This document shows positions 10,015-63,517 of a stretch of DNA of 64,000 nt, piece by piece. The position numbers and the translations under genes were made by a program. The notes beneath the pieces were generated by a model that searched no databases, was not told the DNA's origin, and worked only from the letters and a program-made list of their open reading frames with translations. This stretch comes from Eledone cirrhosa. Its lineage: Eukaryota. Each line of letters opens with the position of its first letter. Within the stretch, counting starts at the first letter, position 1. Location of the stretch: NCBI GenBank assembly GCA_964016885.1, contig OZ024746.1, positions 37,572,001 through 37,636,000 on the forward strand, written 5' to 3'.

Positions 10015-10062
<48 letters not shown>

Positions 10063-10067
<5 letters not shown>

Positions 10068-10243
10068 GAAGAGAGAAGAAACATTTAGATATAATTAGTA
10101 ATAAGATGTATCATACCTAAACTGCTCTAGATTCCTCGACTACGTAGTTTCGTGGCATGATCAAAAACAATACATCATAGAGATATAGAGCCTTTGTGAG
10201 GTCTGCCGACTTATCAAGAGGATACCTCATTTTACTAGCTACA
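10063..10243 (-). mobile_element. Fragment of the 591-nt HHR family, with HHR at 10133-10222
   Basis: Reverse complement reads tcctc-UUGAUAA-gtcggca...tgccac-GAAA-ctacgtag-UC-gagga; flanked by (TA)n. Confidence 0.85.
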
Positions 10244-13662: not shown

Positions 13663-14248
<586 letters not shown>

Positions 14249-14304: not shown

Positions 14305-14369
14305 TATTTCATTATCCATATTTCAACGATACCAAGTTAAATTATGGTATGCCTTCATCAGACAAAATA
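14305..14369 (-). ncRNA. Type I hammerhead ribozyme
   Basis: Inverted copy of 14472-14536 with CUGAUGA and GAAA intact. Confidence 0.75.
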
Positions 14370-14471
14370 CAATATATACCAGTTTTATAAATAAACATTG
14401 ACGTACCCTTTCAAAATGCGACCGTTACTTTTGGAAGCCATCAGGATAGTTTATAAAACTGGTATATATTG

Positions 14472-14536
14472 TATTTTGTCTGATGAAGGCATACCATAAT
14501 TTAACTTGGTATCCTTGAAATATGTATAATGAAATA
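14472..14536 (+). ncRNA. Type I hammerhead ribozyme
   Basis: tattttgt-CUGAUGA-aggcatacca..tggtatcctt-GAAA-tatgta-UA-atgaaata. Confidence 0.85.
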
Positions 14537-17182: not shown

Positions 17183-19190
17183 ATTCAGCGTGAACTACAT
17201 AAAAAATATAAAAAAACAAATGAATCTACACTCTCCAGCATTAACATGGAGGGCCTCAAGATAGGACCGAACCGCTAACCCCGTGCAACCCTACATTTAA
17301 CGTGAAGGATCACAAAAATAACTTTGAAACTAATCCCACCATTAGATTAATATGCCCATCCAAGTCAGAGATAGGTAAAATTAGCAAGAACATTCTAGAT
17401 AGGGTAATCGCACAAATAAAGGGTAAACTAGAAATCAATTTATGGGTCAACACTAACGAGGCAATTAAATGGTTCAATAAAATACAAAATAGGGAGACGT
17501 GTAACTTCATACAATTTGATATAGACGACTATTATGCATCCATATCCCCAGCTACCCTAGATAAGGCGCTTATATTTGCCCAAAATAACTCTGATCTTAC
17601 CCATGATGAAATTGAAATAATAATTGTTTCTACTTTAGGCACAAGGCCAGCAATTACCCGGTACATTACTGGTACTTTATTTTAATAATAGCGGCTAGAA
17701 GGACTATCATAAAATTTGAAAATAACTACTGGGTAAGAAAGGATAGAATAAATATAACAATGGGATCAAATGATTCTGCGCAAATCACAGATATCGTGGC
17801 GATATTCATAGCACACAACCGACATAAGGAATTCAGTAACGTCCAAGGAGGAATGTATAGGGACGACACGTTACTTATAGCTAGGAACCTAAACAACCAG
17901 TGCATGGAAAGACTAAGAAAGAATATTAGAATATTCTTCAAAATACTAGGCCTAAGTATTACCTACGAACTAAACCATAAGAAGGTAAATTTTCTAGATG
18001 TAACTCTAAATCTAAATACTGGATTAATAGAACCTTTCCACAAAAATAATGAAAATCTTGCCTACATTAGTTACCACTCAAATCACCCCAAATCCATAAT
18101 TAAATCCATAGCACGTAGTATATCCCTCCGAATATCCCGCTTATCCTCAAACCTAGAAATCTTTAACGAGCATGCTCACTATTATAATGCAGCATTAAGT
18201 AGGGCCGGTCATAAAGATAAACTACAGTATATAGTGAATAAGGACAACATAAACAATCCTAGTAATTACTACTCCAACCGCTCACATAATAATAGGAATA
18301 GCTTGACTAGACATAGGGTTAGACATGTAACACCTGGAGTAAACGGCCAAAACACTAATAACGTAAACCCAAGAAACAATAGAAGAAGCAGACAAAGAAA
18401 ATACCTATGGTTCAACCCAATATTCAACTCCTCTATAAAAACTAAACTGCCCTCTACATTCTTTAAACTAATAGATAAACACTTCCCTATCTCGCATAGA
18501 TATCACAAAATACTCAATAGATCTACTATAAAACTCTCATTCTCAACAGCAGCTAACATAGAATCACACATACGCAAGATCAACCACAGAAATATCTCTA
18601 GTAAATCAATTGCACCTATACATAAGCACAAACTCATCACAACATCACAACCACAAGCGCATACAAACGCGCAGCAGCAAAACCCCCATTGGGCATATAT
18701 CACAACCCACTTATAACAGAGTACTAAACAGGAATGTAAAAGCTGCACAAAATAGCACCTCAAACTTAACTGTCACCTCCCAGATAGGTGCCCATTGGCA
18801 AACAGATGTCTTGATTCGAGCCTGGTGTACATGTGCACTGTCATCTCGGGTAACTCTACCTGGAATTACATAGGATCCACCGCGGGTTCTTTTAAGAAAA
18901 GATGGTATGTGCACAGGCACTCAATGAAAAACCGTGCACTTATGGGTTCCACAACTCTCGCCAAAAAAATATTGTAATTGAAAGACAGCAACACTAACTA
19001 CAGTATCAACTGGTCGAAGTTGTCGGCTGCTAAAACCTATAGTACAGGGATGTCCCATTGCGGGCTATGTGATCTTGAGCTATTGTATATCCTTAGAAAT
19101 GTTAAAAGGCTACTTAACAATAAGTTAGAAAGATCTATCTTCTGCAGACATAGAATAGACACTAAATTCATAAGATTCAAACCTCCGTGA
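17183..19190 (+). pseudogene. Disrupted PLE RT-endonuclease ORF
   Basis: KDHKNNF, RLICPSKSEIGKISK, FIQFDIDDYYASI, MGSNDSAQ, YRDD, VNFLDVTLNL, WFNP, then YIGST..FKKRWYVH and CGLC. Broken by a SINE insertion, frameshifts and a stop at 18975-18977. Confidence 0.9.
17621..17683 (-). mobile_element. 5'-truncated SINE inserted in the PLE RT
   Basis: SINE 3' end flanked by aataat. Removing it restores EIEIIIAARRTIIKFENNYWVRK..ITMGS. Confidence 0.85.
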
Positions 19191-20356: not shown

Positions 20357-21790
20357 AGATCAAAAGATGGTTAAATGAGTTCCATGTATTTTATTATGCG
20401 CATTTCAAAAACAAACATCATCATGCAATTATATTTGTGTTTTCATCAGATAAAACAGGAGAACATGATATGAAGGCTAAAAAACACTTGTGGATAGTGC
20501 AGTTTTAAATCAACATATGAAAAGTGGTTTTAGATTGATGTGTGATATTGGGAAAAATATTTTATTTAGAGAGGGGGGGGATGATGAAAAAGGGGAGGAG
20601 ATGAGAGGGAGAGATGGGTGATAGAGAGAAAGAGATAGTTTTTATAACTGAGAAAAGATATAATGTTTCACATAGAGAGGTTGAGAACCGTTGGAAGATA
20701 ATGTATAAATTAAAAGAATTTGAAAATTAACGAAGGGAATTTATGTATGAAGATAGAGAGAAAAAATAATAATTGTGGATGAATATTCTAACGTCAAAAA
20801 AAGTGTATGTTGATAAGTATTGTGGCCATTTCAACATTAACGAAGAGAAAAAATTATTAAGGTTTGTGTGTAGAAGGATTTGAGAAAAATAATGTGAAGT
20901 TAAAGTTTGTATATTGAAGGAATTGATAATATGTGCGAATAAAGAGTTAATATGTATTAAGAATGAGTTCGTTGATGGGGAGAAAAAATAATAAATTAAG
21001 GATGAAATTGAGATTAAAAAGTTTTATGATAGAGAGAAAAATTTATAATAATTGCGGATGAATATTCTAACGTCAAAAAAACAAATGTATATGTTATGAA
21101 GGATTTTACAAGGTGAAGATAGAAAGAGGGTAATGAGTAAACAAGTATTATAGAGTGTATAATGCCCTTTGAAGTAAGGTAGGAAGATGGGTATATTTTA
21201 AAGAGGTGTATGTATATGTGCCTTTGAGAAAAGATTCTAAATTGATAAAGAATTGAATATTAACTGTATACTTTGTGAAAAGTCCTATGGAATTTATGCA
21301 GGCAGATAGAAAACAAATATGTACGTCTATTTATTATAGAATCTAGATTAGAGATAATGGTACATTTTTCATTTAGGCAGAGATTACAGATTTTAGATAG
21401 AGAGCTGTTCAAGTATGAGGATGCAGAAGAAACCTTCTTCCAAAAGATGGTATATTTAATGTTTTTGTCTTTCAAGGACCATATGAGTTCTGAGAGAGCC
21501 GTGTTGGTTCTTTTAAGTTTGTATTTGAAAGATGAATGGTGATTATAGAGACGAGCTTTAAAAGAGGTGGAAGTGGAGCCAAAATAGGTGAAGGAATTGG
21601 TGCTAGTTATAACTTTACATTCATAAATTAAGTTTTTATCGAGACAATGGTTGTTGAGAGGACATTTATTTTTAATGCGGCAGTTGCAATTAGAGAGATT
21701 ATTAATGAGTGACCTAGTGTTATCTATAGAAGGAATTGGATTGGAGAAGTTGTTTGCGATAAGAATAATAGGAATAATAGTTTCTATATA
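20350..21790 (-). mobile_element. 5'-truncated PLE: open GIY-YIG domain (21260-21720), 3' UTR and pLTR
   Basis: Manual translation: CNCRIKNKCPLNNHCLDKNLIYEC..YFGSTSTSFKARLYNH..CNLCLNEK..ICLHK. Confidence 0.9.
20387..20457 (-). ncRNA. Type I hammerhead ribozyme
   Basis: Reverse complement reads tgttttat-CUGAUGA-aaacacaaata..tgtttgttttt-GAAA-tgcgca-UA-ataaaata. Confidence 0.85.
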
Positions 21791-22076
21791 TATATATACT
21801 TATAGTTAACTATAGTTAATAATAGTTTCCATATATATAGTTAACAAACGGAAGTACAAAAAGACTTATTATTTTCACGCTTCTTAGAGGAAAGAGGAAA
21901 GAAAGTTCGACATGTCAGGCTTAACCCCTTCTATATGAGTACAACATAGAGACAGGTTCAGAAAGGAGAAACAGAAAAAAGGTCCAGTAAAGACACAAAA
22001 AAACGAAAATGAAAATGGAAAAAAAGAAAACCGTTACGTAGTCTCGGTAACGAATAGGAAAACTAAAAGTGTGCAG

Positions 22077-24460: not shown

Positions 24461-24509
<49 letters not shown>

Positions 24510-24518
<9 letters not shown>

Positions 24519-25383
24519 TTAGAAACACACATATACATGCGGACACACACATATACATGAATGCATCCACATGCAACCGTGAGTTAATGGTGCCAACCTT
24601 ACCGATGTTGCTCAATGAATGACTGGGACAGACCAATCCGGTTGAACTAGACTGAACCAGTATCAGAGTTAAAAATACATTATGAAGAGAGAAGAAACAT
24701 TTAGATATAATTAGTAATAAAATGTATCATACCTAAACTGCTCCTGGATTCCTCGACTACGTAGTTTCGTGGCATAAACAAAAACAGTACATCATAATGA
24801 TATAGAGCCTTTGCGTCTAGTTCAACCGGATTGGTCTGTCCCAGTCATTCATTGAGCAACATCGGTAAGGTTGGCACCATTAACTCACGGTTGGATGTGG
24901 ATGCATTCATGTATATGTGTGTGTCCGCATGTATCTGCGTGTTTCTAAATATATTATTCATAAATCCCTCTGGTCGACTAATCTTTGAAGTGTGGTGACT
25001 GCTGGAAAGCTGCCATTACTCATACTTCTCGACTCCTTTACCACCTCTTCTACGGCTTCGATATAAATACCCCCTCCGCCTCCGTGGTATTTTCTTCGGG
25101 GTTATAAGAGGCTTAGCTCTGTTTCTCGACCGTTATATCACGTGACTATCCCCCCCTCCGCCTTTTGGGATTCTTCTCACGTTGTGTAGACGCGTTCTTG
25201 AAGCTAGTAAAATGAGGTATCCTCTTGATAAGTCGGCAGACCTCGCAAAGGCTCTATATCTTTATGATGTACTGTTTTTGTTTATGCCACGAAACTACGT
25301 AGTCGAGGAATCTAGGAGCAGTTTAGGTATGATACATTTTATTACTAATTATATCTAAATGTTTCTTCTCTCTTCATAATGTA
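24510..25383. mobile_element. 591-nt HHR family, head-to-head insertion: (-) arm 24510-24815, (+) arm 24816-25383, HHR at 25220-25309
   Basis: Both arms align to the 34509-36740 monomer at different permutation points. Confidence 0.9.
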
Positions 25384-26462
25384 TATATATATATATATAT
25401 ATATATAGTAAAAGTAGTATTCAAAATTGCTGATATTAATTCAACGTACTTCTGCCTGCGTCTAGCTCACTCAGCGAATCTGCCGAATTGCCGTAATGCA
25501 GCTGCATTCAGCTGTTCAGAGTGCACACATTTAGTTAATAGCAGATAGAGTCGCTGTGTTTTGGTAGCGGTACAAGTAAATGTCTCAAATCCTGGACGAT
25601 ATCGTTTCTGTATATTACATCCGCAAAGTTCAGAAGATCAAGCTATATCAGTAGATATTTGCATAATCATGCTATTACACGACATCAGCAGGAGGACCAA
25701 GTCATAAGATAGGTCCATGCAGTGAGTGTTATCCATTACTGATGGATGAGATATCTAGCAGTTCTCGGCATTCTCACACTGCCTCTAATAAAAAGTAGAA
25801 GAATTCCATCGTAGAATAGATCAGGTGGTTTGGTGGTTGAATTCAAACAAAGCAATTCGGACCAAAACAAAAACAGTCTACCAGCTTCTCGTTTATGGGC
25901 ATATATACATAACGGTTTTTATGTATATATATATGTGTGTGTGTGGTTGTGTGTGTGGTTGTATGTGTGTATGTGTGTATGTGTGTGGATGCGCGTGTGT
26001 AAATTTCGTATATTTTATAATTATACGGTATGTTTAAGAATAAACGTTTGGAATGCCTTCTAGTTATACATATTGAAATGTTATCGGGTAGCACCCTCTA
26101 GCGGATTCCAGCAGAAGCAGCGAGAGAAAACTGTCAAGGCCCATTTCTGGTTCTGGCCGTTATCAGTACAGTAGATCCCATTTGAGATGACTCACCAATT
26201 CGTTAATTATATGGCACTGTTTCGTTGCATATCTGTTTATTTACATGAATACTTCGTACATTATACAATATCAACGTCAATATACAACGTCATATATGTA
26301 TACATATGGAAGGTCCTAGTATTAACCCCACCATATATATGCATGTGTGCGTGTGTGTATGTATGTGTGCATGTGTATGTGGGTGTTTATGTGATTGTCT
26401 GTGTTTGTTTTTGTGTGTAAATTGATGATTCTCCATGTCTATATATATATATATATGTGTGT

Positions 26463-32750: not shown

Positions 32751-33160
32751 TACTCTATTGAGCTTTCATGATAATCGTCATTCCTTTTCTCCTTCATTCA
32801 ATACTATATTATGTAATATAAAGTGAAAGTCATTTATATATACCACAGTATAATTTGTTAATTTCTCTCTCCGCCGCAAGTGATAATCTCATTTGCTACG
32901 AAGGCAACTCCTTTTTTTTACCATTATATCTTGTGTTAATTCCTCTCTCTGCCTCTAGAGATTTTTCACTTGCTACAAACGCGTCAAAGAAAAAGTCCTT
33001 TTTTCTGAGGGGTGTCTCTTTATAAGCAGTATCAACCGCACAGCAATGATGCATTTTTATAGTACATAATGCTGCATATGGATTGGCGAAACCCCAGTTG
33101 GGACTTTAAAGAAAAAATAGGGATATTTTTGTCTATTATTTCCTCATCTTTTGTTATGTG

Positions 33161-33244
<84 letters not shown>

Positions 33245-33247
<3 letters not shown>

Positions 33248-33506
33248 GTATAAAAATCAATACAACATAATTACCTCATTACCAGAGGTTTCCCGAATGA
33301 GGCGAATACGAAATAACGACTTCATTCGTTCGTCTCGTCTGACGAACGAATGAAGTCGTTTATTTCGTATTCGCCTCATTCGGGAAACCTCTGGTAATGA
33401 GGTAATTATATTGTATTGATTTTTATACATTAAATTTTGCTGTGATACTTACATAGAGCACTCTTCATTTCTATGACCTTTTCTGTTCCCAACGGAAATT
33501 TCAATA

Positions 33507-33510
<4 letters not shown>
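33245..33510. mobile_element. Near-perfect ~185-bp hairpin pLTR pair
   Basis: 33245-33334 is inverted at 33341-33432. The tail acatagagcactctt is shared with 43800-43820. Confidence 0.85.
33334..33401 (+). ncRNA. Type I hammerhead ribozyme
   Basis: ctcgt-CUGACGA-acgaatga..tcattcgg-GAAA-cctctgg-UA-atgag. Confidence 0.85.
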
Positions 33511-33588
<78 letters not shown>

Positions 33589-34643
33589 CATGTGTGTGCG
33601 TTTGAGTATTAGCGTGTGTGAGTGTGTGTGTGTGTGTATGTGTATTTACATGCGCGTGTGTAAGTATGTTTGTCTCCCCATGTGTATGCACGCGTTTGTG
33701 TGCCTATTACATGTGTGTACTTGTATATGGTAAGGGCGTGTGGTTGTAAGAGTATGCACATGTGTTTGATTTGTTGCTTAGTTAATTGTCTTTACATATC
33801 GATAATGCGGTTTCAAAACCTTAATAATGTAATACATCAAATAATTTACGTTTACGTTAAAGTGCATTTCGGAATACAATCCAAGTACGATATAAATTAT
33901 TAACCACACATATCTATTCATTAGAATAAACACACTGAAAGTGCCCTTATCTACTGGTGTCTTCAGTATATAAAAGCTGGTGGAGGACAACCCGCTTCAG
34001 GCCAGTTGACAGCCGAGTTCTCCTAAAGGATGAATGTTCGAGAGAATGAGAGATTGTGAGAAAGTGATACAGGGGAAGTATCAACTTATGCATTGAACTG
34101 ATATTTTATATATTAACCTCGAAATCATGAAAGGAAATGTTGCCCACTGTGTATTTGACTAAATACTGGGACAAACAGCGTGACAATAAAACGAATACTG
34201 AACGAACAACGTAGAGGCATAGAATGGTCACCATTGACATTATCATTTGTTCCCAACACACAACTGGATTATGGATAGAATACAAAATATATTGGAACTA
34301 ATAAATATGTTCGTGATAACATTGTAACTGATTCTTGTTTTACGGTAGATCCTCCATTCATTCTCACAGCCCTGATTACTCACTCGTTACAATCACTACA
34401 CAATTCAAGATATAGTCACATTATATAAATATGTGTGTGTGTGTGTCTGTCTGTGTTTCTGTCTGTGTCTATATATATATATATTTTTATATATTTATAT
34501 ATATATATGGTATTTTTTTCGTGGTTATAAGAGGCTTAGCTCTGTTTCTCGACCGTTATATCGCGTGACTATCTCCCCCTCCGCCTTTTGGGATTCTTTC
34601 TCACGTCGTGTAGACGCGTTCTTGAGACTAGTAAAATGAGGTA

Positions 34644-34731
34644 TCCTCTTGATAAGTCGGCAGACCTCGCAAGGACTCTATATCTTTGAAATATTGTTTT
34701 TGTTTATGCCACGAAACTACGTAGTCGAGGA
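34644..34731 (+). ncRNA. Hammerhead ribozyme, U3-A8 variant, unit 1
   Basis: tcctc-UUGAUAA-gtcggca..57-nt stem II..tgccac-GAAA-ctacgtag-UC-gagga; predicted cut after 34726. Confidence 0.8.
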
Positions 34732-35234
34732 CTTTAGGAACAGTTTAGATATGATACATTTTATTACTAATTATATCTAAATGTTTCTTCTCTCTTCATA
34801 ATGTATTTTTAACTCTGATACTGGTTCAGTCTGGTTCAAACTGAATTGGTCTGTCCCAGTCATTCATTGAGCAACATCGGTGAAGTTGGCACCCTTAACT
34901 CACAGTTGGGTGCGGATGCATTCATGTATATATGTGTGTGTCCGCATGTATCTGTGTGTTTCTAAATATATTAATAACTCCCTCTGGTCGAGCAATCTTT
35001 GAAGTGTGGGGACAACTGGAAAGCTTCCATTACTCATACTTCTCGCCTTCTTCACTACCTCTTCTACGGCCTCGATATGGATACCCCCTCCGCCTCCGAG
35101 GTATTTTTTTCGTGGTTATAAGAGGCTTAGCTCTGTTTCTCGACCGTTATATCGCGTGACTATCTCCCCCTCCGCCTTTTGGGATTCTTTCTCACGTCGT
35201 GTAGACGCGTTCTTGAGACTAGTAAAATGAGGTA

Positions 35235-35322
35235 TCCTCTTGATAAGTCGACAGACCTCGCAAGGACTCTATATCTTTGATATATTGTTTTTGTTTATGC
35301 CACGAAACTACGTAGTCGAGGA
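35235..35322 (+). ncRNA. Hammerhead ribozyme, U3-A8 variant, unit 2
   Basis: As unit 1 with one stem II substitution (gtcgaca); predicted cut after 35317. Confidence 0.75.
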
Positions 35323-35824
35323 ATTTAGGAACAGTTTAGGTATGATACATTTTATTACTAATTATATCTAAATGTTTCTTCTCTCTTCATAATGTATTTT
35401 TAACTCTGATACTGGTTCAGTCTGGTTCAAACTGAATTGGTCTGTCCCAGTCATTCATTGAGCCACATCGGTGAAGTTGGCACCCTTAACTCACAGTTGG
35501 GTGCGGATGCATTCATGTATATATGTGTGTGTCCGCATGTATCTGTGTGTTTCTAAATATATTAATAACTCCCTCTGGTCGAGCAATCTTTGAAGTGTGG
35601 GGACAACTGGAAAGCTTCCATTACTCATACTTCTCGCCTTCTTCACTACCTCTTCTACGGCCTCGATATGGATACCCCCTCCGCCTCCGTGGTATTTTTT
35701 CGTGGTTATAAGAGGCTTAGCTCTGTTTCTCGACCGTTATATCTCATGACTATCTCCCCCTCCGCCTTTTGGGATTCTTTCTCACGTCGTGTAGACGCGT
35801 TCTTGAGACTAGTAAAGTGAGGTA

Positions 35825-35912
35825 TCCTCTTGATAAGTCGGCAGACCTCGCAAGGACTCTATATCTTTGATATATTGTTTTTGTTTATGCCACGAAACTA
35901 CGTAGTCGAGGA
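35825..35912 (+). ncRNA. Hammerhead ribozyme, U3-A8 variant, unit 3
   Basis: As unit 1; predicted cut after 35907. Confidence 0.8.
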
Positions 35913-36415
35913 ATTTAGGAACAGTTTAGGTATGATACATGTTATTACTAATTATATCTAAATGTTTCTTCTCTCTTCATAATGTATTTTTAACTCTGAT
36001 ACTGGTTCAGTCTGGTTCAAACTGAATTGGTCTGTCCCAGTCATTCATTGAGCAACATCGGTGAAGTTGGCACCCTTAACTCACAGTTGGGTGCGGATGC
36101 ATTCATGTATATATGTGTGTGTCCGCATGTATCTGTGTGTTTCTAAATATATTAATAACTCCCTCTGGTCGAGCAATCTTTGAAGTGTGGGGACAACTGG
36201 AAAGCTTCCATTACTCATACTTCTCGCCTTCTTCACTACCTCTTCTACGGCCTCGATATGGATACCCCCTCCGCCTCCGTGGTATTTTTTTCGTGGTTAT
36301 AAGAGGCTTAGCTCTGTTTCTCGACCGTTATATCGCGTGACTATCTCCCCCTCCGCCTTTTGGGATTCTTTCTCACGTCGTGTAGACGCGTTCTTGAGAC
36401 TAGTAAAATGAGGTA

Positions 36416-36503
36416 TCCTCTTGATAAGTCGGCAGACCTCGCAAGGACTCTATATCTTTGATATATTGTTTTTGTTTATGCCACGAAACTACGTAGTCGA
36501 GGA
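36416..36503 (+). ncRNA. Hammerhead ribozyme, U3-A8 variant, unit 4
   Basis: As unit 1; predicted cut after 36498. Confidence 0.8.
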
Positions 36504-36734
36504 ATTTAGGAACAGTTTAGGTATGATACATTTTATTACTAATTATATCTAAATGTTTCTTCTCTCTTCATAATGTATTTTTAACTCTGATACTGGTTCA
36601 GTCTGGTTCAAACTGAATTGGTCTGTCCCAGTCATTCATTGAGCAACATCGGTGAAGTTGGCACCCTTAACTCACAGTTGGGTGCGGATGCATTCATGTA
36701 TATATGTGTGTGTCCGCATGTATCTGTGTGTTTC

Positions 36735-36780
<46 letters not shown>

Positions 36781-45631: not shown

Positions 45632-45699
<68 letters not shown>

Positions 45700-45703
<4 letters not shown>

Positions 45704-46049
45704 AGAAAAAGAGATGAAATCGAAAATGCAACTGGAGTCTTATTTTTTTTTTAAATATATATATTTATTTGGTTAGATACCGGTTTCGCAGTTCTTCTGC
45801 TTTTCAAAAGTAGAGTTGAGATGGAGGGTCTGTGGTTTTTCTAACAGATGTGAGAAAAACCACAGACCCTCCATCTCAACTCTACTTTTGAAAAGCAGAA
45901 GAACTGCGAAACCGGTAAAGGAACCAAATAAATATATATATTTTTTTTAAATAAAACTCTAGTTGCATTTTCGATTTCATCTCTTTTCCTTTATACCTTC
46001 ACTCGTGTAGGACACCTCGGTTATTTTTCAATTTGTAAAAAAACCTCAC

Positions 46050-46234: not shown

Positions 46235-46303
<69 letters not shown>

Positions 46304-47062
46304 ATATATATATGTATACATATATACACACATATACGCAACACACACGCACACACACAAACATAAATATCTAAAAATTAAAAAATTGGGAATGTGAAGG
46401 GTAAGTCAGAAAGTAGGGGGGGGGGGGATAAGGAAAATAAATGACATAGTAAAAGGTTTAAATATAAAGGGAGATAAGGGAGAAAGAGAATACGAGAGTA
46501 CAGAACGTAAATTCAGCAGGTAAAAAAAACCGTAGTGGAAGTAAAGAGTAGTGAAGTTGTTCAAGGTGGTTGAGTTATAGTAGGAATGTCAATCCAGTTA
46601 CAGATCAGATGTGATTTCAGGTGAGGACAACATCTGAAGATCTCGGTCTTTGAGTTCAGGCAAGCAGAAGTGGCTTTCAAGTTTTGTAAAATCCTATATA
46701 AAATCCTATATAAAAACTTGAAAGCCACTTCTGCTTGCCTGCCTCAAAGACCGAGATCTTCAGATGATGTCCTCAACAGAAATCACATCTGATCTGTAAC
46801 TGGATTGACATTCCTACGATAACTCAACCACCTTGAACTCCTTTCCTGCTCTTTACTTCTACTACGGTTTTTTTTACCTGCTGAATTCACGTTCTGTCCT
46901 CTCATATTCTCTTTCTCCCTTATCTCCCCTTATATTTAAACCTTTTCCTATGTCATTTATTTTCCTTATGTTCCCCCTACTTTCTGCCTTACCCATCACA
47001 TTTTTTTTTTGTTTTTAGATATTTATTTTTGTGTGTGTGCGTGTGTATTGCGTATATGTGTG

Positions 47063-47151
<89 letters not shown>

Positions 47152-49166: not shown

Positions 49167-49588
49167 GGAACGAGTAGGACCCCGACGGCTGAGCTCAAGC
49201 CGTTTCGGCGGCTATTTGTGGACTAAATGAAAATGTTTATCCTGGTACATGAATAGCCGAGCTTCTCCGGGGGTAGTTCCATATATGGTAAAAGTGATTG
49301 TCACAAGGATTGGCCAAAAGTGCGTTATGGTGCGTTATGGTCCATCTGGTTCCTTACCGCATTTCCTTCGCTATATATATATATATATATATATTTCGTT
49401 TCTGAATTTGTTTGGCAAGATTCTTTATCTGAAATCGTGTGTTGAAACCGATATTGTTATACTTTGGGAGGGTAATGTTGCCAATAAGAAACACACGCTC
49501 CAGTTGCTTTCACTTCAATTTATTATATATTTATAAATTTACAAGTTTATAAATTTATATATTTCTGGTTGGTTGGTTGTTTATATAT

Positions 49589-49633
49589 AGTCATAGTCCT
49601 TTCGTCACACACTCTGTGACCTCTTCAGTGACT
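49589..49633 (-). ncRNA. Minimal hammerhead ribozyme in pLTR
   Basis: Reverse complement of 57352-57396. Confidence 0.9.
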
Positions 49634-49843
49634 GGGGGTTCCTTTCTTTGTTTCTGTGCCTCTCCTTTGTTCTGTCCTACGCCATTGTGTTTCTGTGTGT
49701 GTGTTGTGTGCTCAGTCTGCGCATGCGCCACATCCGGGTGTCTGTGTGTGTTTATGTTCATTTATCTATTTGTTTATTTATTTACTTATTTACATGTTAC
49801 TGGTTGGTTGTTTGTTCTATGTGTGTGTGTTTTCATTTTGTCC

Positions 49844-52800
49844 TTAATTGTAAGTTGTGATGTTGCTGTTCCACTCATATTTTCTATTTAATTTTGGTTG
49901 TAATTCTTTTATGTTTATTGTCTCTGTAATTTGTCTAAACATTGCATATTTTCTGTGTGTAGATTCTATTTTTATTTCTATGTTCTCTAATTTACCCCTG
50001 TGTTCTATCTTAGCATGTTGGTAGAGTACAGATGATTCTTTATTATCTTGAAGGTCTCGCCAGTGTTCATTTATCCGTTCCCCTATACTACGAGCTGTCT
50101 CACCTATGTACACTATATTTTTGTCTCTACATTGTCCTTCAGTACATCTTATGCTATACACTACATTTCTAGTTTTACAGTTAATATGGGGGCTTATTTT
50201 ACAGGTTATACATTTCTTATCTATATATGAGGGTCTTTGAAAAGGGTATGTCTTGCTAATAAGTGTGTTTACGGAGGTACCTGGTCTTTCTACTATCTTA
50301 ATATTGAGTTTATGTTTATTTAGGGCCCTTCTAAATTTGTAGGCTAGTTCGCCTCTAGGGGTTGTATCGATGAACATTACACTCTGGTATTTATTGCTAT
50401 CATACCATGAGTTTATTCTATTAGCCTTGTTCCTAGTTCTTTCTATTCTAGTCCAAAATGTGCTTCTATACAAGGAGCAGGTCCCATTTATGTCATTATT
50501 TCCCATTTTTTCCCATTTGGTTCTGGCTCCTCGATACACTCTGATTCTATCTCTCTGATTGTAGCCAGAGAACTGCATACGGTGGATGAAGTGTTGTATG
50601 TGTCTCTCTAGTTCTTCGGGGTTGCACATGCGGGACACATTTCTCATCACCCGTACCAAATCCGCAATCAGTATGTTGATTTTGGTATGGTCCGAAATGG
50701 CCGAGTTTCGGTGGATCAGATGTTTGGAAGTCATGGGTTTGGCATAATGGGAATGGAGGATTTGTTTTTTGTTGTTAATGGTATCTAACCAGAGCTATGT
50801 GTCTAGTACAGGTAATCGATGGTTGGGGTGTCTACTTGGGTAGTCTATAGTAACTCTAATGCTCTGGTGGATGGAGTTTGCTATTTGGTGGATGCTTTCC
50901 ATTGTGTTTTGCTCTAGTTCCTGACTGTTCTCTAGTTCGGGTGTCTTAACCACGATGTTTATATCATCTACGTAGCGGAGTACATTATCAGGGTTAAGGG
51001 GTCTTCTAATTGTTCTTTAAGTTTAAGTTTAAGTCTACTGTCCCACCATACCATGAATAAGTTAGCTATGTCGCCTGCAATGCTAACACCAATGGTTGCT
51101 CCTTCCTCTTGGGCATATGTTTTTCCATTAAATTTGAACATATTTTCCTTAAGGGTAAGTTTTATGCTGGCCCCTATCCCATATGCAATCATTTTCTTCA
51201 GTTCATCGTGGTTTTCGGGTGTCCGTATGGCTCTGGTCCACCCGTTCCATCTATCTGTGTGGGTTTTCTTGGCCATTGAGGTAATGGTAGGTGGTCTGCC
51301 TCTTGCTGGTCTTGTAGGGCACAGGTTGCTAAGGTCATATGTGTCTAGGTAACTATTACTATAGGTAAGCTTAAGTAGAAGTCCCAGCTCACTGGTATCA
51401 ATCCCACGGATCTCAACCTTGCTCTCACTGATCATTTCTACGCATTTCTCCACAGCAAAATCCACGTCAATAGATGGATACAGGGACACAACATCCATAC
51501 TGCCTATTATGCAGTTTGTTAGGTCCCCAGATCGGTTACTCACGCCGATTCTGCTGAGGAGGTCCTCCGTGCTGTCACATACATCTGGGGACATTTCAAT
51601 GATGGGGCGTATGATCAGGGAGAGGAAGTAGGACAGTCTGTAGTTACTAGCAATGTTAGCTCCACAGACTGACCGTGTTTGTGGTCCCGCGACAGGGTCA
51701 CATAACGTTTTATGGTCTTTTCGAAGCCCATACAGCGCCGGCACGTCATTGTTCCAGGCCTGGAAGTTGTTGGCAGTCCTTTTGTTGGGCTGCATTATAT
51801 TCGTCCACATCACCATATGGGCATTGAGGGCTTTTTCTCTATCCTCATGCTCCTGTGGTGTTACCTCTCTTGTGTTAGTGATGTGGGTTGCATTGCCTGG
51901 ATGTAGTTTGGCAGGCTGTCAACCGACATTCTGCAAGACTTGTCTGTTGGAAAGCATGCTATCTCTCCATTACGTGAGCGCTGCATGAGCTTACGCAAGC
52001 CATTTGCAGATTTTTCTCCCAGTTGCTGGGCCTCCATTCTATTATGCTTCTTGCTATACTGTTCTATAATATTTCTAAGTTCGGATCTAGCTATACTAAA
52101 TTGTGCTTCTGTTTGTTCATCGACCTGCGACGGCAATTGCGTGCGTTTGTTAAATGGTAAAGTCGTGGCGTGGACTCGTCGCAGGTCGAATGATTTATCG
52201 GAGGGATTATAAAACGGAGAGTTCCAGGCTGCTGCTTTATGTTTACTAGTGCTATTGTTATTGTTAGTTGTGTTGTTTCTATTTCTATTTCCACCAACAG
52301 CTTCATGGTTGTTTCTATGTGTCTCATAATTACTCCTCTCTCTTTCCACTGGCTCATTGTTGTTATCTACCCTATTTTGTGTGTCTGTGTATTCGTCTTG
52401 GTTATTCTATTTGTCCTTCGTCTCCCTTCTCCTTTTAATCCTATTACTTTCTCTTATTTCTGTGATTTCTGTGCTACTGTCATTACTTGTTTTCTGTGTC
52501 TGTGTGTTTGTTAAGATTGTGGGGGTGGTGAGAGGCATTGAATGCGTGTGTGTTGTTGTTGTTGATGTGCTGTTGTTGATGTGTGTTGTTGTTGTCTCCA
52601 TGTGTGTTATTGTTGTTGTGTGTGTTGTTATTGTTGTTTGTGTCTGCGTGTCTGTTGTTGTTTCTGGGTATGTTGTTATTGTTGTTGTTGTTGATGTGTG
52701 TGTTGTTGTTATTGTTGTTTGTGTCTGTGTGTCTGTTGTTGTTGGGATGTGTGTTGTATATGTGTGCGCGTATATTGTTGCTTTTGTTTTTGTTTTTGTT

Positions 52801-53371
52801 TTTGATGCTCCAGCGTAGTTTTGTAAATGATTTTTCTATTTCTGACAGACAACTAATCATATTTACCTTCTTGAATGCCGCAAATTTCGGGGGCAAGCAT
52901 AACACAGACATTTAGTCATTATCTATTCTTGCGTTCCCATATATATTCGTGTTGTTATTGTTGAACTCATCCGTTAATGAGGTGTCGGCCATATTTATAC
53001 CGTCAATTTTGTGGGGATATCTATTGGTATTCTCTATAGTATCCTGATATAGTTTTATCTGCTTAAGACACTTTATTTTCTTGTTAAAGTGCTTATCACA
53101 TTCTTGAGTAATGTACTGTTTTTCAGGGCGTATAAGGCTTATAAATATTAGTTTCTCTCTTGGTGTGGTGATCCTAGCTATTTCTTGTATTAGGTTACGC
53201 TTTTGTTTTTCTTGATGACTTAATTCTCTATAGATCTTCTTTTTTATGTTTAGAATTATTGTTCGTTTTAGCCTATCTGCTTGTTTTTTGGTGAGTTATA
53301 ATCTTCTAACGTCGGTATTGATGGTGTTGGTGTAGATTCTGGATGAGGCACACTGCTTTATGAAGTGTAGA
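49844..53371 (-). pseudogene. Disrupted PLE RT-GIY-YIG ORF (twin arm)
   Basis: ORF pieces 52483-52911, 51861-52349, 50968-51816 and 49844-50734 are collinear with the + ORF, with frameshifts and stops. Confidence 0.92.
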
Positions 53372-53405
53372 TTTTATGAAGTATAAATTGAAGTGAAAGC
53401 AACTG

Positions 53406-54498
53406 GTGCGTGTGTTTCTTATTGGCCACATGACCCTCCCAAAGTATAACAATATCGGTTTGAACAAACGATTTCAGATAAAGAATCTTGCCAAACAAAT
53501 TCAGAAACGAAATATCGTAAGCCCTAGCCAGGCTAACAAGATACTGAAAACCACCATGTTCTGTTATCTACGAAAAACCATAACATCTCGACAACTACAT
53601 TTCATAAAGCAATGTGCCAGAATCTACACCAACACCATCAATACCGACGTTAGAAGATTGCAACTCACCAAAAAACAAGCAGACAGGCTAAAACGAACAT
53701 TAATTCTAAACATAAAAAAGAAGATCTATAGAGAATTAAGTCATCAAGAAAAACAAAAGCGTAACCTAATACAAGAAATAGCTAGGATCACCACACCAAG
53801 AGAGAAACTAATATTTATAAGCCTTATACGCCATGAAGAACAGTACATTACTCAAGAATGTGATAAGCACTTTAACAAGAAACTAAAGTGACTTAAGCAG
53901 ATAAAACTAAATCAGGATACTATAGAGAATACCAATAGGTATCCCGACAGAAAGTGACGGTATAAACATGGCCGACACCTCATTAACAGAAGAGTTCAAC
54001 AATAACAACACGAATATATATGGGAACGCAAGAATAGATAATGACGAAATGTCTGTGTTATGCTTGCCCCCGATATTTGCGACATTCAAGAAGGTAAATA
54101 TGATTAGTTGTCTGTCAGAAATAGAAAAATCATTTACAAAACTACGCTGGAGCATCAAAATCAAAAACAAAAACAAAAGCAACAATATACGCACACACAT
54201 ATACAACACACATCCCAACAACAACAGACACACAGACACAAACAACAATAACAACAACACACACATCAACAACAACAACAATAACAACATACCCAGAAAC
54301 AACAACAACAGACACGCAGACACAAACAACAATAACAACACGCACAACAACAATAACACACACGGAGACAACAACAACGCACATCAACAACAGCACACAT
54401 CAACAACAGCACACATCAACAACAACAACACACACGCATTCAATGCATCTCACCACCACCACAATCTTAACAAACACACAGACACAGAAAACAAGTAA
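53406..54498 (+). pseudogene. N-terminal part of the PLE ORF (two frames)
   Basis: 53406-53891 and 53968-54498 (VLCLPP.F..SEIEKSFTKLRW) are separated by a TGA and a +1 indel that the twin arm lacks. Confidence 0.7.
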
Positions 54499-57139
54499 TG
54501 ACAGTAGCACAGAAATTACAGAAATAAGGGAAAGTAATAGGATTAAAAGGAGAAGGGAGACTAAGGACAAAGAGAATAACCAAGACGAACACACAGACAC
54601 ACAAAATAGGGTAGATAACAACAATGAGCCAGTGGAAAGAGACAGGAGTAATTATGAGACACATAGAAACAACCATGAGGCTGTTGGTGGAAATAGAAAT
54701 AGAAACAACACAACTAACAATAACAATAGCACTAGTACACATAAAGCAGCAGCCTGGAACTCTCCGTTTTATAATCCCTCCGATAAATCATTCGACCTGC
54801 GACGAGTCCACGCCACGACTTTACCATTTAACAAACGCACGCAATTGCCGTCGCAGGTCGATGAACAAACAGAAGCACAATTTAGTATAGCTAGATCCGA
54901 ACTTAGAAATATTATAGAACAGTATAGCAAGAAGCATAATAGAATGGAGGCCCAGCAACTGGGAGAAAAATCTGCAAATGGCTTGCGTAAGCTCATTCAG
55001 CGCTCACGTAATGGAGAGATAGCATGCTTTCCAACAGACAAGTCTGGCAGAATGTCGGTTGACAGCCTGCCAAACTACATCCAGGCAATGCAACCCCACA
55101 TCACTAACACAAGAGAGGTAACACCACCGGAGCATGAGGATAGAGAAAAAACCCTCAATGCCCATATGGTGATGTGGACGAATATAATGCAGCCCAACAA
55201 AAGGACTGCCAACAACTTCCATGCCTGGAACAATGACGTGCCGGCGCTGTATGGGCTTCGAAAAGACCATAAAACGTTATGTGACCCTGTCGCGGGACCA
55301 CCAACACGGCCAGTCTGTGAAGCTAACATTGCTAGTAACTACAAACTGTCCTACTTCCTCTGCCTGATCATACGCCCCATCATTGAAATGTCCCCAGGTG
55401 TATGTGACAGCACGGAGGACCTCCTCGGCAGAATCGGCGTGAGTAACCGATCTGCGGACCTAACAAACTGCATAATAGGCAGTATGGATGTTGTGTCCCT
55501 GTATCCATCTATTGACGTGGATTTTGCTGTGGAGAAATGCGTAGAAATGATCAGTGAGTGCGAGGTTGAGATCCGTGGGATTGATACCAGTGAGCTGGGA
55601 CTTCTACTTAAGCTTACCTATAGTAATAATTACCTAGACACATATGACCTTAGCAACCTGTGCCCTACAAGACCAGCAAGAGGCAGACCACCTACCATTA
55701 CCTCAATGGCCAAGAAAACCCACACAGATAGATGGAACGGGTGGACCAGAGCCATACGGACACCAGAAAACCACGATGAACTGAAGAAAATGATTGCACA
55801 TGCGATAGGGGCCAGCATAAAACTAACCCCTAAGGAACATATGTTCAAATTTAATGGAAAAACATATGCCCAAGAGGAAGGAGCAGCCATTGGTGTTAGC
55901 ATTGCAGGCGACATAGCTAACTTATTCATGGTATGGTGGGACAGTAGACTTAAACTTAAACTTAAAGAACAATTAGAAGACCCCTTAACCCTGATAATGT
56001 ACTCCCGCTACGTAGATGATATAAACATCGTAGTTAAGACACCACCACTAGAGAACAGTCAGGAACTAGAGAAAAACACAATGGAAAGCATCCACCAAAT
56101 AGCAAACTCCATCCACCAGAGCATTAGGATTACTATAGACTACCCAAGTAGACACCCCAACCATCGATTACCTGTACTAGACACAGAGCTCTGGTTAGAT
56201 ACCATTAACAACAAAAAACAAATCCTCCTTTCCCATTATGCCAAACCCATGACTTCCAAACATCTGATCCACCGAAACTCGGCCATTTCGGACCATACCA
56301 AAATCAACATGCTGATTGCGGATTTGGTACGGGTGATGAGAAATGTGTCCCGCATGTGCAACCCCGAAGAACTAGAGAGACACATACAACACTTCATCCA
56401 CCGTATGCAGTTCTCTGGCTACAATCAGAGGGATAGAATCAGAGTGTATAGAGGAGCCAGAACCAAATGGGAAAAAATGGTAAATAATGACATAAATGGG
56501 ACCCGCCCCTTGTATAGGAGCAAATTTTGGAATAGAATAGAAAGAACTAGGAACAAAGCTAATAGAATAAACTCATGGTATGATAGCAATAAATACCAGA
56601 GTGTAATGTTCATCGATACAACCCCTAGAGGCGAACTAGCCTACAAATTTAGAAGGGCCCTAAATAAACATAAACTCAATATTAAGATAGTAGAAAGACC
56701 AGATACCTCCGTAAAAACACTTATTAGCAAGACATACCCTTTTCAAAGACCCTCATATATAGATAAGAAATGTATAACCTGTAAAATAAGCCCCCATATT
56801 AACTGTAAAACTAGAAATGTAGTGTATAGCATAAGATGTATTGAAGGACAATATAGAGACAAAAATATAGTGTACATAGGTGAGACAGCTCGTAGTATAG
56901 GGGAACGGATAAATGAACACTGGCGAGACCTTCAAGATAATAAAGAATCGTCTGTACTCTACCAACATGCTAACATAGAAGACAAGGGTAAATTAGAGAA
57001 CATAGAAATAAAAATAGAATCTACACACAGAAAAGATGCAATGTTTAGACAAATTACAGAGGCAATAAACATAAAAGAATCACAACCAAAATTAAATAGA
57101 AAATATGAGTGGAACAGCAACATCACAACTTACAATTAA
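54443..57139 (+). CDS. PLE reverse transcriptase / GIY-YIG endonuclease, 898 aa (frame open from 54125)
   Basis: PTDKSG, LYGLRKDHK, TRPV, GSMDVVSLYPSI, long RT insertion CPTRPARGRPPTIT, QEEGAAIG, YVDD, LPVLD, CITC..C..NVVYSIRC..YIGETAR..ERINEH. Confidence 0.93.
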   Translation: MHLTTTTILTNTQTQKTSNDSSTEITEIRESNRIKRRRETKDKENNQDEHTDTQNRVDNNNEPVERDRSNYETHRNNHEAVGGNRNRNNTTNNNNSTSTHKAAAWNSPFYNPSDKSFDLRRVHATTLPFNKRTQLPSQVDEQTEAQFSIARSELRNIIEQYSKKHNRMEAQQLGEKSANGLRKLIQRSRNGEIACFPTDKSGRMSVDSLPNYIQAMQPHITNTREVTPPEHEDREKTLNAHMVMWTNIMQPNKRTANNFHAWNNDVPALYGLRKDHKTLCDPVAGPPTRPVCEANIASNYKLSYFLCLIIRPIIEMSPGVCDSTEDLLGRIGVSNRSADLTNCIIGSMDVVSLYPSIDVDFAVEKCVEMISECEVEIRGIDTSELGLLLKLTYSNNYLDTYDLSNLCPTRPARGRPPTITSMAKKTHTDRWNGWTRAIRTPENHDELKKMIAHAIGASIKLTPKEHMFKFNGKTYAQEEGAAIGVSIAGDIANLFMVWWDSRLKLKLKEQLEDPLTLIMYSRYVDDINIVVKTPPLENSQELEKNTMESIHQIANSIHQSIRITIDYPSRHPNHRLPVLDTELWLDTINNKKQILLSHYAKPMTSKHLIHRNSAISDHTKINMLIADLVRVMRNVSRMCNPEELERHIQHFIHRMQFSGYNQRDRIRVYRGARTKWEKMVNNDINGTRPLYRSKFWNRIERTRNKANRINSWYDSNKYQSVMFIDTTPRGELAYKFRRALNKHKLNIKIVERPDTSVKTLISKTYPFQRPSYIDKKCITCKISPHINCKTRNVVYSIRCIEGQYRDKNIVYIGETARSIGERINEHWRDLQDNKESSVLYQHANIEDKGKLENIEIKIESTHRKDAMFRQITEAINIKESQPKLNRKYEWNSNITTYN

Positions 57140-57247
57140 GGACAAAATGAAAACACACACACACATAGAACAAACAACCAACCAGTAACATGTAAATAAG
57201 TAAATAAATAAACAAATAGATAAATGAACATAAATACACACAGACAC

Positions 57248-57305
57248 CCGGATGTGGCGCATGCGCAGACTGAGCACACAACACACACACAGAAACAAAA
57301 TGGCG
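57248..57305 (+). promoter_or_regulatory. Candidate pLTR Pol II promoter motifs (ETS-, NRF1- and YY1-like)
   Basis: ccggatgt 57248, gcgcatgcgc 57257 and caaaatggcg 57296, just upstream of the HHR; motif match only. Confidence 0.45.
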
Positions 57306-57351
57306 TAGGACAGAACAAAGGAGAGGCACAGAAACAAGGAAAGGAATCCCC

Positions 57352-57396
57352 AGTCACTGAAGAGGTCACAGAGTGTGTGACGAAAGGACTATGACT
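57352..57396 (+). ncRNA. Minimal hammerhead ribozyme in pLTR
   Basis: agtca-CUGAAGA-ggtcaca gagtg tgtgac-GAAA-ggac-UA-tgact. Confidence 0.9.
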
Positions 57397-57674
57397 ATAT
57401 ATAAACAACTATCTGGTTGTGGAACCAACCAACCAGAAATTTATAAATTTATAAACTTGTAAATTTATAAATATATAATAAATTGAAGTGAAAGCTACTG
57501 GTGTGTGTGTTTCTTATTGGCAACATGACCCTCCCAAAGTATAACAATATATATATATATGTATATATATATATAGGAGAAAGTATGACCCCGACGGCAG
57601 AGTTCAAGCCGTTTCGACAGCTATTTCTGGACTATATATATATACGTACACACCCCATATATATATATATATAT

Positions 57675-58045
57675 TATATACAATGATATTAAATAAATGG
57701 AAACTATATTTATAAAACCATATTTATTTCATATATATCATATAAATCATACTTTATCGGTTGGATATTCTTTGGATATCCAAAGAATATCCAACCGATA
57801 AGGTATGATTTTCATGGGTATGTCTCTATTCATAAAAGAAACTTTGTATTTTATCTGAGGAAAGCGTACCAATGTGTTTTGGTACCCTTGAAATATATAT
57901 AATAAAATAGAAAATGGTTTTATAAATATAGTTTCCATTTATTTAATATCATTGAATATTTCCTCCAGTAACATGCTGAGTGCTCTAAATCAGTTATAAA
58001 CATTTATATTTGTCGGACATCCAACAGATTAAATACCCTTTCTAC
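57675..58045. mobile_element. Head-to-head pLTR pair (family of 14263-14668)
   Basis: 57681-57735 is inverted at 57897-57954. Confidence 0.8.
57847..57909 (+). ncRNA. Type I hammerhead ribozyme
   Basis: tattttat-CUGAGGA-aagcgtacca..tggtaccctt-GAAA-tatata-UA-ataaaata; perfect 8-bp stem I. Confidence 0.88.
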
Positions 58046-61397: not shown

Positions 61398-62248
61398 TCT
61401 ATCTATCTAAGGCGGGTAAAATTCCCGAGATCCATGGACGAGTTCTCTCCAGCGGTCTCTGTCCCTCATTATCGCTGCCATGTCCTGCATCTCCAACAGA
61501 CCAGTGTCTGTCCTTAGGGCATCAACATACGTTAACCTTGGACTTCCTCTTCTAGTGTGTCCATGTAGGGGCTCCCAAAGGAGCACTGCGTGCAATGTCA
61601 ACTCTGGATGTCGGTGAGCATGTCCAGCCAACCTCAGTCTCCTCTGTGTCACTTTTGAGCTGACTTTTGGGATGCTCCCATACAGCTCTGAGTTTTTCAT
61701 CCTCAGTATATACTGATTAATGTTCAGAGCCATCCTCAGCATTCTCGTGTAGCACCCATCCACCATCTGAGTGAGTTTCTTTGTCAGTGTCCAAGTCTCA
61801 GACCCATACAGCAGCACAGACTCCACTACAGCAATAAAGAGGCGGATTTTTTTAGGTCTCTACGAAGGTCCGACTTCCACACCGATCTCAAGCTGTGGCA
61901 CGCCGCCCAGGCCTTGCTTTTCCTCTCAACCACATCATCTTCCGTATTCCCAATCTTTGCTCCCAAATACAGGAAGTCCTCAACCAATTCCAGCGGCTTC
62001 CCGCCTACATTAGTGATCCCCTCTGGCTTCTCAACATTCTCTACCAGATATTTTGTCTTAGTCTCATTCAATCTCAGCCCCACGCTCATCGACACAGTCT
62101 CAACCTCCCGCATCAAATCCTCTGCCTCCTTCACTGTATTTGTCACCAAAACTATGTCGTCGGCAAATTCAGCATCCGATACCTTTTTCGCCCTAACTCT
62201 CCTGCTCTGAGCCGGTGCTACAGTAAAGCCAGAGTCGTGGTGTTTCTC
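61398..62248 (-). mobile_element. 5'-truncated RTE-clade LINE, fairly young, one frameshift near 61850
   Basis: EFADDIVL, GLRLNETKTK, VEDFLYLGA, ESVLLYGSETW, RRLRLAGH, DRDRWR; short (TAGA)n tail. Confidence 0.92.
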
Positions 62249-62279
62249 ATATATATATGTATGTGTGTATGCTTGTGTA

Positions 62280-62327
<48 letters not shown>

Positions 62328-62330
62328 CTT

Positions 62331-62404
<74 letters not shown>

Positions 62405-63517
62405 ATACACACACACACACACATATATACATATATTTACACCTGTCTATATGTGGCGATAAATTATATGTGTGTGTTTATGTTTCTGCATTGACCAGGC
62501 ATCTGAAGCAAGGATACTTTCTCACTAAGTGAGCAGCAAAAACTGTCACGGATTATACAGTGGAATTCATTACCTAAATGTACGGAATACATAAAATATT
62601 GCATTTCTTTCAAAGTTCCAACGTTTATGCCAAACCATGACCTGAACTTGTAGTCACTTTATAGAAATCTGTAATGCTAGTCTTGCTGCCGTTATTGATT
62701 AAACTATTTGCATCATAAGAATTGATTGTTTTAACATCAGTTTTCTCTACAATTTTCAATCTGTGATTGAAGGGTTAGATGTTTCTATTTATTTAATTGT
62801 CATATTGTCTCCTCGATATCAGCATTTGTGTTTCCAAAAAAAAATAGTGTTTTGTTTCTGTTCGTTTCATTATTCCTGCCACGCTTGCAATATAATAAAT
62901 ACTTTTCATTATGGCTAAGTGACGAGTCTTTTACTGTGGCGTTTCAGATAAGTCAACATGTCTATCATTAAATTGAAGACGGCTGACAAGAATGGAATAC
63001 ATAACACAAAATCTTACGCATCCATACATTTAATTTATTCTTTCATAAAATAAAGTTCAAACAGAAAATAGACTACTATAAACATGTCATAAAAACAGCG
63101 TAAATAATTATTACTGTTTGGCAATTAGCTCGTAAGTTAACTTGTCTGTAAGTTACTCCAAAATGAGTTTTATTGAAAATTGCAAAAGAAATAAGATTGT
63201 TAAACACAACAAATGGATGTCGAACAAAATTAATCTCAATTATTTCATAGCTTTATCCAAAATATTAACATAAACAGGATGAATTTAAAAAAAATATAGA
63301 TGATATTGAACAACAAAAGGTTTATTTTTTATAACATTGAAGACATTATAAACGCACAAACTTAAGGAAACTAATAGAAAATAAAACTTTGTATCGAATT
63401 AGTTATTCGATTAATATTTTAAAAGAGTTATATTTATGAGATTAAAAAAATATATGTTTACTGAAAAGTCGTTGCATAACTTTCTCTAAACACAGACACA
63501 GACACGCAGACACACAG

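Follow-up and report, generated by a model that had tools for sequence, protein, structure and literature searches.

A non-coding retroelement of the octopus Eledone cirrhosa, whose unit carries a hammerhead ribozyme motif, probably spreads by way of a 591-nt RNA circle, with a Penelope-like (PLE) enzyme copying it round, to judge from the sequence of its genomic copies. By genomic criteria, the 591-nt family qualifies as a new non-LTR retrozyme, one in which the traces of the mechanism are unusually clear. The first-pass annotation had taken the repeat for a mobile, non-coding, hammerhead-bearing element, and this is well supported by dispersed copies, fixed 3′ ends, random 5′ ends, and clonal arrays.

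The 591-nt array

The window, meaning the whole 64,000-nt stretch of DNA that was analysed, contains one tandem array of the unit and two further copies of the element:

34470..34508, no strand: (TA)n target, left flank
34509..36743, + strand: single-arm tandem insertion of 3.78 units, 5′ truncated, with the long site as its 3′ end
35908..36498, + strand: complete cleavage-to-cleavage monomer of 591 nt, corresponding to the putative circular RNA
36579..36743, + strand: 165-nt stretch from the short (36578) to the long end site (36743), the equivalent of a PLE "tail"
36738..36777, no strand: (TA)n target, right flank, overlapping an ATATAT that belongs to the long end of the unit
24502..25384, no strand: older two-arm head-to-head copy, whose minus arm ends at the long site and plus arm at the short site
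10059..10238, − strand: 5′-truncated single-arm copy with a short-site end in (TA)n

Successive units of the array measure 591, 591, 590, and 463 nt and are distinguished by 10 substitution sites, each confined to one unit, plus one 1-nt indel. In the unit numbering used here, position 1 corresponds to 35100, cleavage to 218, the short site to ~298, and the long site to ~463. The initial description of ~3.8 near-identical units in (TA)n without a real ORF holds, as 3.78 units are bordered by (TA)n on both sides and, when the unit is doubled, its longest frame starting with ATG encodes 75 aa of low complexity. Dispersed copies that had been reported near 10.1 and 24.5 kb were likewise recovered, at 10059-10238 (minus strand) and ~24502-25384, the arms of the latter showing 89-94% identity to unit 2. 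A blastn comparison of the unit with the whole window returned family copies and microsatellite only. The arrays are circularly permuted and have no terminal repeats (no flanking LTR pair). TRF, which stops at periods of 500, did not call the array. Over the hammerhead lies a short frame with an ATG, of 17 aa in the young subfamily, which was rejected as a gene, the frame being lost in the older subfamily.

A CCCCTCCGCC box occurs twice per unit, ~80 nt apart, upstream of the ribozyme (35083-35097 and 35165-35177). It is accompanied by a TATA-like element in some subfamilies, and some arms are deleted between the two boxes (L088, L132). The two CCCCTCCGCC boxes and the TATA-like element represent a possible internal promoter.

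The hammerhead motif and the family

Each unit carries one type I hammerhead motif with a GUC site, in agreement with the first-pass annotation; a descriptor places C17 at 34726, 35317, 35907, and 36498:

34644..34731, + strand: hammerhead motif 1, predicted cleavage after 34726
35235..35322, + strand: hammerhead motif 2, predicted cleavage after 35317; one stem II pair is lost through G>A at 35251
35825..35912, + strand: hammerhead motif 3, predicted cleavage after 35907
36416..36503, + strand: hammerhead motif 4, predicted cleavage after 36498

The motif is composed of stem I (UCCUC/GAGGA), the core UUGAUAA, stem II, GAAA, stem III, which is palindromic as had been noted, and GUC. Its core is a U3-A8 variant (UUGAUAA), a covariant of the usual C3-G8 pair, and stem II spans 57 nt, with a long extension bearing a distal hairpin; the first-pass annotation had noted neither feature. 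Rfam returned no hammerhead in the window or the array at E values up to 10, which may be because of the U3-A8 core and the 57-nt stem II. A U3-A8 hammerhead is described in PMC3088659 as natural and active in vitro, and such hammerheads are reported from Schistosoma Cercyon PLEs (PMC4209133).

A genome-wide copy count, suggested at the outset as a check, gave 7,300 exact matches to the ribozyme 24-mer in 3.0 Gb; the reversed control gave 0 matches, and chance is therefore excluded. Fifty loci account for the first 100 matches, from which a family size of roughly 3,000-3,700 loci is extrapolated. The best copies are 99% identical on many contigs, and the family is young. A second subfamily, of about 75% (73-74%) identity, has an ORF-free ring of ~590 nt. 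A further group, family 3 (loci L199-L222; ~900 search candidates), has an ORF-free ring of ~567 nt with ~50% identity to the unit and was reached via a decayed copy in the window:

32842..33162, + strand: decayed family 3 copy with a short-site end in (TA)n

Copies of family 3 are about 81-95% alike, carry an internal duplication upstream of the ribozyme, and end 68 and ~205 nt past the cleavage site.

Across 19 copies of the first two subfamilies, the proposed structure is paired in 97.5% of 524 cells, which is a modest test as the copies are related, and a compensatory stem I change occurs in 2 of the 19. Family 3, which on sequence grounds provides stronger evidence of conservation than this pairing count, keeps UUGAUAA in 20 of 26 copies, most often has GUCUC/GGGAC as stem I (12 of 26), and has a different palindrome as stem III in 18 of 26. 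The core is kept and stems I and III are re-paired across ~50% divergence; the ribozyme fold and its ability to pair with a second copy have therefore been maintained under selection.

Array ends and head-to-head arms

Array ends were compared at 136 non-redundant loci, comprising 50 unbiased loci (from the first 100 matches on C1) and the remainder chosen by searches. The arms terminate almost exclusively at two sites (206 of 216), with 108 short-site ends, 98 long-site ends, and 10 others. These sites are 165 nt apart, the short one 80 nt and the long one 245 nt past the cleavage site, and (TA)4 is found within 20 nt after 91 of 94 site ends. The 5′ ends are compatible with a uniform spread round the ring (KS p 0.16), 3 of 100 falling within 10 nt of the cleavage site versus 3.6 expected. 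The second subfamily and family 3 end at matching sites. Target site duplications are unreadable, the flanks being (TA)n. In run X2, loose (AT)n ends at 34806, 34971, and 35397 match the two end sites, a result that is perhaps not assembly-independent.

Approximately half of the loci consist of two arms placed head to head. Of such pairs, 68 combine a short with a long end (67 independent pairs, L043 being a local duplicate), 1 has two long ends, and none has two short ends; the remaining pairs comprise 6 with one atypical end and 1 incompletely covered by the extracted sequence. The excess of short plus long is significant against a 50% expectation (p ~1e-19), and a rule of one site per arm is followed in 67 of 68 independent head-to-head cases. 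The lone long-plus-long pair, L122, was re-checked and counts against a strict rule. In the unbiased subset (50 loci), the count is 23:0 for short plus long, with 3 atypical.

At the level of sequence, this array-end anatomy is PLE anatomy. PLEs are described as having inverted, 5′-truncated partners and a tail that is often present at only one end (PMC8557442, PMC3846280); according to PMC11167929, the tail is the stretch between two internal start sites of reverse transcription, and the PLE enzyme cuts and extends both strands in vitro. An ORF-bearing PLE in the window provided a control:

49372-57550: PLE insertion that carries an ORF and consists of two arms of ~4 kb placed head to head, with 96% identity
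54125-57139: PLE frame of 1004 aa with reverse transcriptase (RT) and GIY-YIG-type motifs
57357-57391 and 49628-49594: hammerheads of the window PLE

The outer ends of this insertion are of one long and one short type, ~57 nt apart, and its end has at least 1,575 candidate copies in the genome. The ORF-bearing PLE family follows the one-site-per-arm rule too: 17 of 19 clean pairs are short plus long, and of the other two, one is the partial tandem inside the window's own insertion, which has mixed outer ends. Four further control pairs were excluded for low coverage, one of them long plus long (L193), and additional pairs comprise two mixed and one long plus long (L154/L155). It is an evenly poised conjecture that the family records double-primed rolling-circle reverse transcription, in which two fixed sites of one monomeric RNA circle are bound by a PLE enzyme, probably dimeric, and each target strand primes one of them, both copies circling the same template to give clonal head-to-head multimers, and that the rule is general for PLE integration.

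Some arm junctions contain short reiterated or rearranged pieces of the unit (L074 5205-5265, L033 3566-3821, L085 3331-3348), with an 11-mer repeated about six times at the L074 junction; this suggests slippage while the two cDNAs were joined. At L035, L039, L065, and L112, retrozyme arms sit in the (TA)n run at the ends of PLE copies, and the two kinds of element thus accumulate at shared targets.

Clonality inside arrays and the nature of the template

Arms longer than one unit are common in the unbiased set (33 of 79), the longest arm reaching 7.2 units, which indicates that the enzyme crosses the cleavage site; no indel (0) was found in 153 passes over that site. Among 41 loci with overlapping copies, 115 variants are locus-wide, including 31 that are private to one or two loci and fixed in every overlapping copy of their locus. 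The same loci contain 110 unit-specific changes and 12 that are partly shared, 6 of the latter from local duplication. At L074, six private variants are present in all 7-8 units of both arms. Of 185 common polymorphic positions, 1 differs between the arms of a locus, versus 26% between loci; in young loci, 0 of 136 positions differ between arms, versus 6.9% between loci. The haplotype shared by units and arms implies that each insertion consists of many copies of one monomer haplotype and that both arms derive from one template. Reverse transcription round a covalently closed monomer would be the best and simplest explanation of this clonality. Variants shared by the arms in register, which a heterogeneous linear multimer would produce, number 1 in 13,212 opportunities versus ~17 expected if source arrays were as heterogeneous as present ones, in favour of the closed monomer. 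Out-of-register shared variants, two in L081 and one in L082, count against it. A 621-nt contig from run X1 (the unit plus a 30-nt overlap, a closed loop) was rejected as evidence of a circle, given that tandem DNA yields the same.

The pattern of variants also bears on growth after insertion. According to this alternative, about one unit was inserted and later expanded by unequal crossing-over, or circular DNA was spread; local amplification has been suggested for retrozyme tandems (bioRxiv 10.64898/2026.07.22.740005), and insertions exceeding one unit do offer direct repeats for recombination. However, 1 variant is clearly common to adjacent units of one arm versus 110 that are unit-specific, and the 10 unit-specific differences of the window array include none common to a subset of units. 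Both inverted arms are often multi-unit, and the combination of fixed 3′ and random 5′ ends points to reverse transcription. Arm length increases weakly with identity and not with age (rho 0.26, p 0.02), a correlation taken from the unbiased set only because top-hit selection inflates the all-locus value. Growth after insertion, or spread as circular DNA, is thus largely refuted and would be a very improbable source of the arrays.

Predicted folding and cleavage

The circular monomer has a predicted minimum free energy (MFE) of -172.8 kcal/mol (z -6.1 versus 30 shuffles). In the isolated core, the active fold lies within 1.1 kcal/mol of the MFE; in equilibrium folding, the pairing probability of stem I is ≤0.05 with ≥20 nt of upstream sequence and 0 in the circle. 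A ribozyme masked in this manner in the predicted circle would suit a stable circle. Because the active fold is disfavoured with ≥20 nt upstream, cleavage would need co-transcriptional folding, dimerisation, or the help of a protein. As described in PMC11167929, the anole PLE hammerhead cleaved only with protein, its cleavage was dispensable for insertion in vitro, where unprocessed RNA was the main substrate, and RNA-seq provided no reads ending at the cleavage site; for Xenopus dimers, 8 of 9 are reported without cleavage (bioRxiv 10.64898/2026.07.22.740005). The predicted cleavage-disfavouring fold, these anole results on hammerhead cleavage, and the Xenopus dimers all count against the circle as best explanation.

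These observations are of interest for a rather unlikely alternative in which the same PLE-type twin priming acts on a linear uncleaved multimer from a homogeneous source array, or on a linear monomer with precise jumps, and the hammerhead has another or a minor role. The dominance of unprocessed RNA as anole PLE substrate in vitro (PMC11167929) and an active fold that is unfavoured at equilibrium in long contexts both fit a linear template, and, as fresh arrays are homogeneous, an equal signal of clonality would be expected from a source of very recent origin. Against a linear template, array-wide private variants need a monomer bottleneck at some step, in-register inherited differences amount to 1 versus ~17, and arms reach 7.2 units though all copies are 5′ truncated. 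Moreover, the cleavage site lacks the scars or stops that jumps would tend to leave, and the hammerhead has been kept across ~50% divergence.

Search for an ORF-bearing partner

Pfam gave no match for four local PLE frames, which were assigned by the RT and GIY-YIG-type motifs visible in them and by Atlas look-alikes at 0.96-0.98. The unit and the PLE at 49-57 kb have no significant shared sequence. No autonomous PLE end resembling the unit was found in the window PLE or in 0.98 Mb of extracted sequence, and a profile search of the latter recovered only family 3, itself ORF-free. Patterns designed for a partner yielded only the family: a variant stem III pattern had 48 matches, all 30 examined being family members or arm junctions, and a tail-motif pattern had 6,008 matches, with 19 of 19 further loci belonging to the family. 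A descriptor match upstream of L109 was attributed to chance. None of the ~140 sampled loci has an ORF adjoining a copy, PLE protein matches within loci stand apart from the arms, and 0 of 25 single-arm loci have a common flank adjoining the 5′ end.

As the case that would speak against a retrozyme, the first-pass annotation had named a unit that is simply the pseudo-LTR (pLTR) of an ORF-bearing PLE; this arrangement is absent from the sampled loci. Its view that the element is spread by local PLE machinery stands as regards a PLE-type machinery, given the ends and arms, and is unsupported as regards "local", no significant sequence being shared with the PLE at 49-57 kb. An origin of the arrays as truncated ends of an ORF-bearing PLE, with the unit as its pLTR, would be consistent with the end architecture, the U3-A8 core, and the short stem I, all of which are PLE-like (PMC4209133), and with the homology of 24 of 57 Xenopus retrozyme families to annotated transposable elements, nearly all of them PLE ends (bioRxiv 10.64898/2026.07.22.740005). 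A rare ORF-linked master would fit as well, the sample comprising ~140 of several thousand loci. Such an origin is nonetheless highly unlikely in view of units that follow one another head to tail up to 7.2 times without an ORF, 5′ ends all round the ring, the 25 single-arm loci without a common 5′ flank, the separation of PLE protein matches from arms, and relatives at ~75% and ~50% identity that are ORF-free rings too. A remote descent of the unit from a pLTR, on the other hand, is likely.

Proposed route of movement

For the preferred RNA circle, the route may be outlined in four steps. First, array transcripts would cut themselves at one hammerhead after another, probably with the aid of a protein or of dimers formed via the palindromic stem III, and a host ligase would close the monomer. 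Second, a PLE RT/GIY-YIG protein acting in trans, the putative source of the footprint seen at the ends, would nick (TA)n DNA and prime at either the short or the long internal site. Third, as clonality suggests, synthesis would proceed for 0.1 to 7 turns round the template and stop at random, giving 5′-truncated arrays of identical units. Fourth, in about half of the insertions, each of the two DNA strands would be primed at a different one of these sites on a shared RNA, and the two cDNAs would be joined head to head; the pattern is seen in the genome and the mechanism is presumptive.

Comparison with known systems

Like metazoan non-LTR retrozymes, as described in PMC7229834 and bioRxiv 10.64898/2026.07.22.740005, the family consists of non-coding tandems with one type I hammerhead per unit, has thousands of copies, a GC content <50%, no LTR organisation, and a strongly self-paired predicted circle, and shares its genome with PLEs. 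The monomer had been thought larger than those of known retrozymes, which is not upheld: it is above the ~170-400 nt of PMC7229834 and inside the 51-972 bp of the bioRxiv account. The family differs from these retrozymes in its U3-A8 core and 57-nt stem II, and in its short dispersed arrays with PLE-type fixed ends and head-to-head arms. In addition, most described animal retrozyme circles leave the hammerhead free, whereas folding of the putative 591-nt circle predicts a blocked one.

In contrast to endonuclease-positive PLEs, including Poseidon PAc of Anolis, as described in PMC11167929, PMC8557442, and PMC3846280, the unit has no ORF, its tail is 165 nt rather than 30-40 bp, and the element as a whole amounts to a circularly permuted ring, of which up to 7 copies follow one another. 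The hammerheads of Schistosoma Cercyon PLEs (as described in PMC4209133) resemble the present motif in their U3-A8 core, 5-bp helix I, long helix II, and palindromic loop III suited to dimers; however, a 3-bp helix III can form in the monomer too in the present case, and the motif belongs to a tandem unit that stands by itself, not to the pLTR of an element with an ORF. MRC1 and other non-autonomous Chlamys elements are likewise described as PLE derivatives that insert head to tail in multiple copies (PMC8557442), although they come from green algae and from a group without canonical hammerheads in that account. They also generally match an autonomous family at the 3′ end (PMC8557442), and no such match was found for the unit.

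Other elements in the window

C3-G8 hammerheads of other families are present at 14313-14528, 20395-20449, 57855-57901, and 1161-1205; they have a palindromic loop III and lie near PLE fragments and (TA)n, and the hammerhead pair at 14.3-14.5 kb forms a small head-to-head insertion with unequal ends. Degraded RT and GIY-YIG fragments of a second type of PLE, with a Cys-rich motif before the nuclease, occur at 17245-18873, 4392-5314, and 21260-21799, and fragments of a LINE-type reverse transcriptase frame occur at 61407-62494 (minus strand). Several inverted repeats, perfect or nearly so and with (TA)n on either side (33161-33569, 45699-45995, 46236-47151, and 13762-14092), are probably small head-to-head insertions of other families.

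Significance

Reverse transcription of circles has been proposed for retrozyme movement, with PLEs named as no more than likely candidates (PMC7229834, PMC7761336), and according to PMC7761336 retrozyme repeats have no conserved motif pointing to a partner. A pLTR ancestry has been argued for Xenopus retrozymes (bioRxiv 10.64898/2026.07.22.740005). PLE RT acting on circles is so far a proposed route. Neither a published one-site-per-arm count or clonality test nor a retrozyme from octopus or other cephalopods was found in the literature covered; closed-access papers, supplements, and Repbase/Dfam may contain either.

The present family adds evidence at the level of ends and haplotypes for the PLE-on-circle route and against post-insertion amplification. 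Its ends carry the mark of PLE insertion and the interior of its arrays that of clonal copying, so genome data alone separate the models of movement. Two sites on the unit RNA can now be named for the existing in vitro PLE system, and the count of 67 of 68 turns the loose remark that the tail is "often at only one end" into a near-strict constraint on the integration complex. If true, one site per arm would hold for PLE integration in general, and the ring would represent a minimal substrate for programmable multimer insertion.
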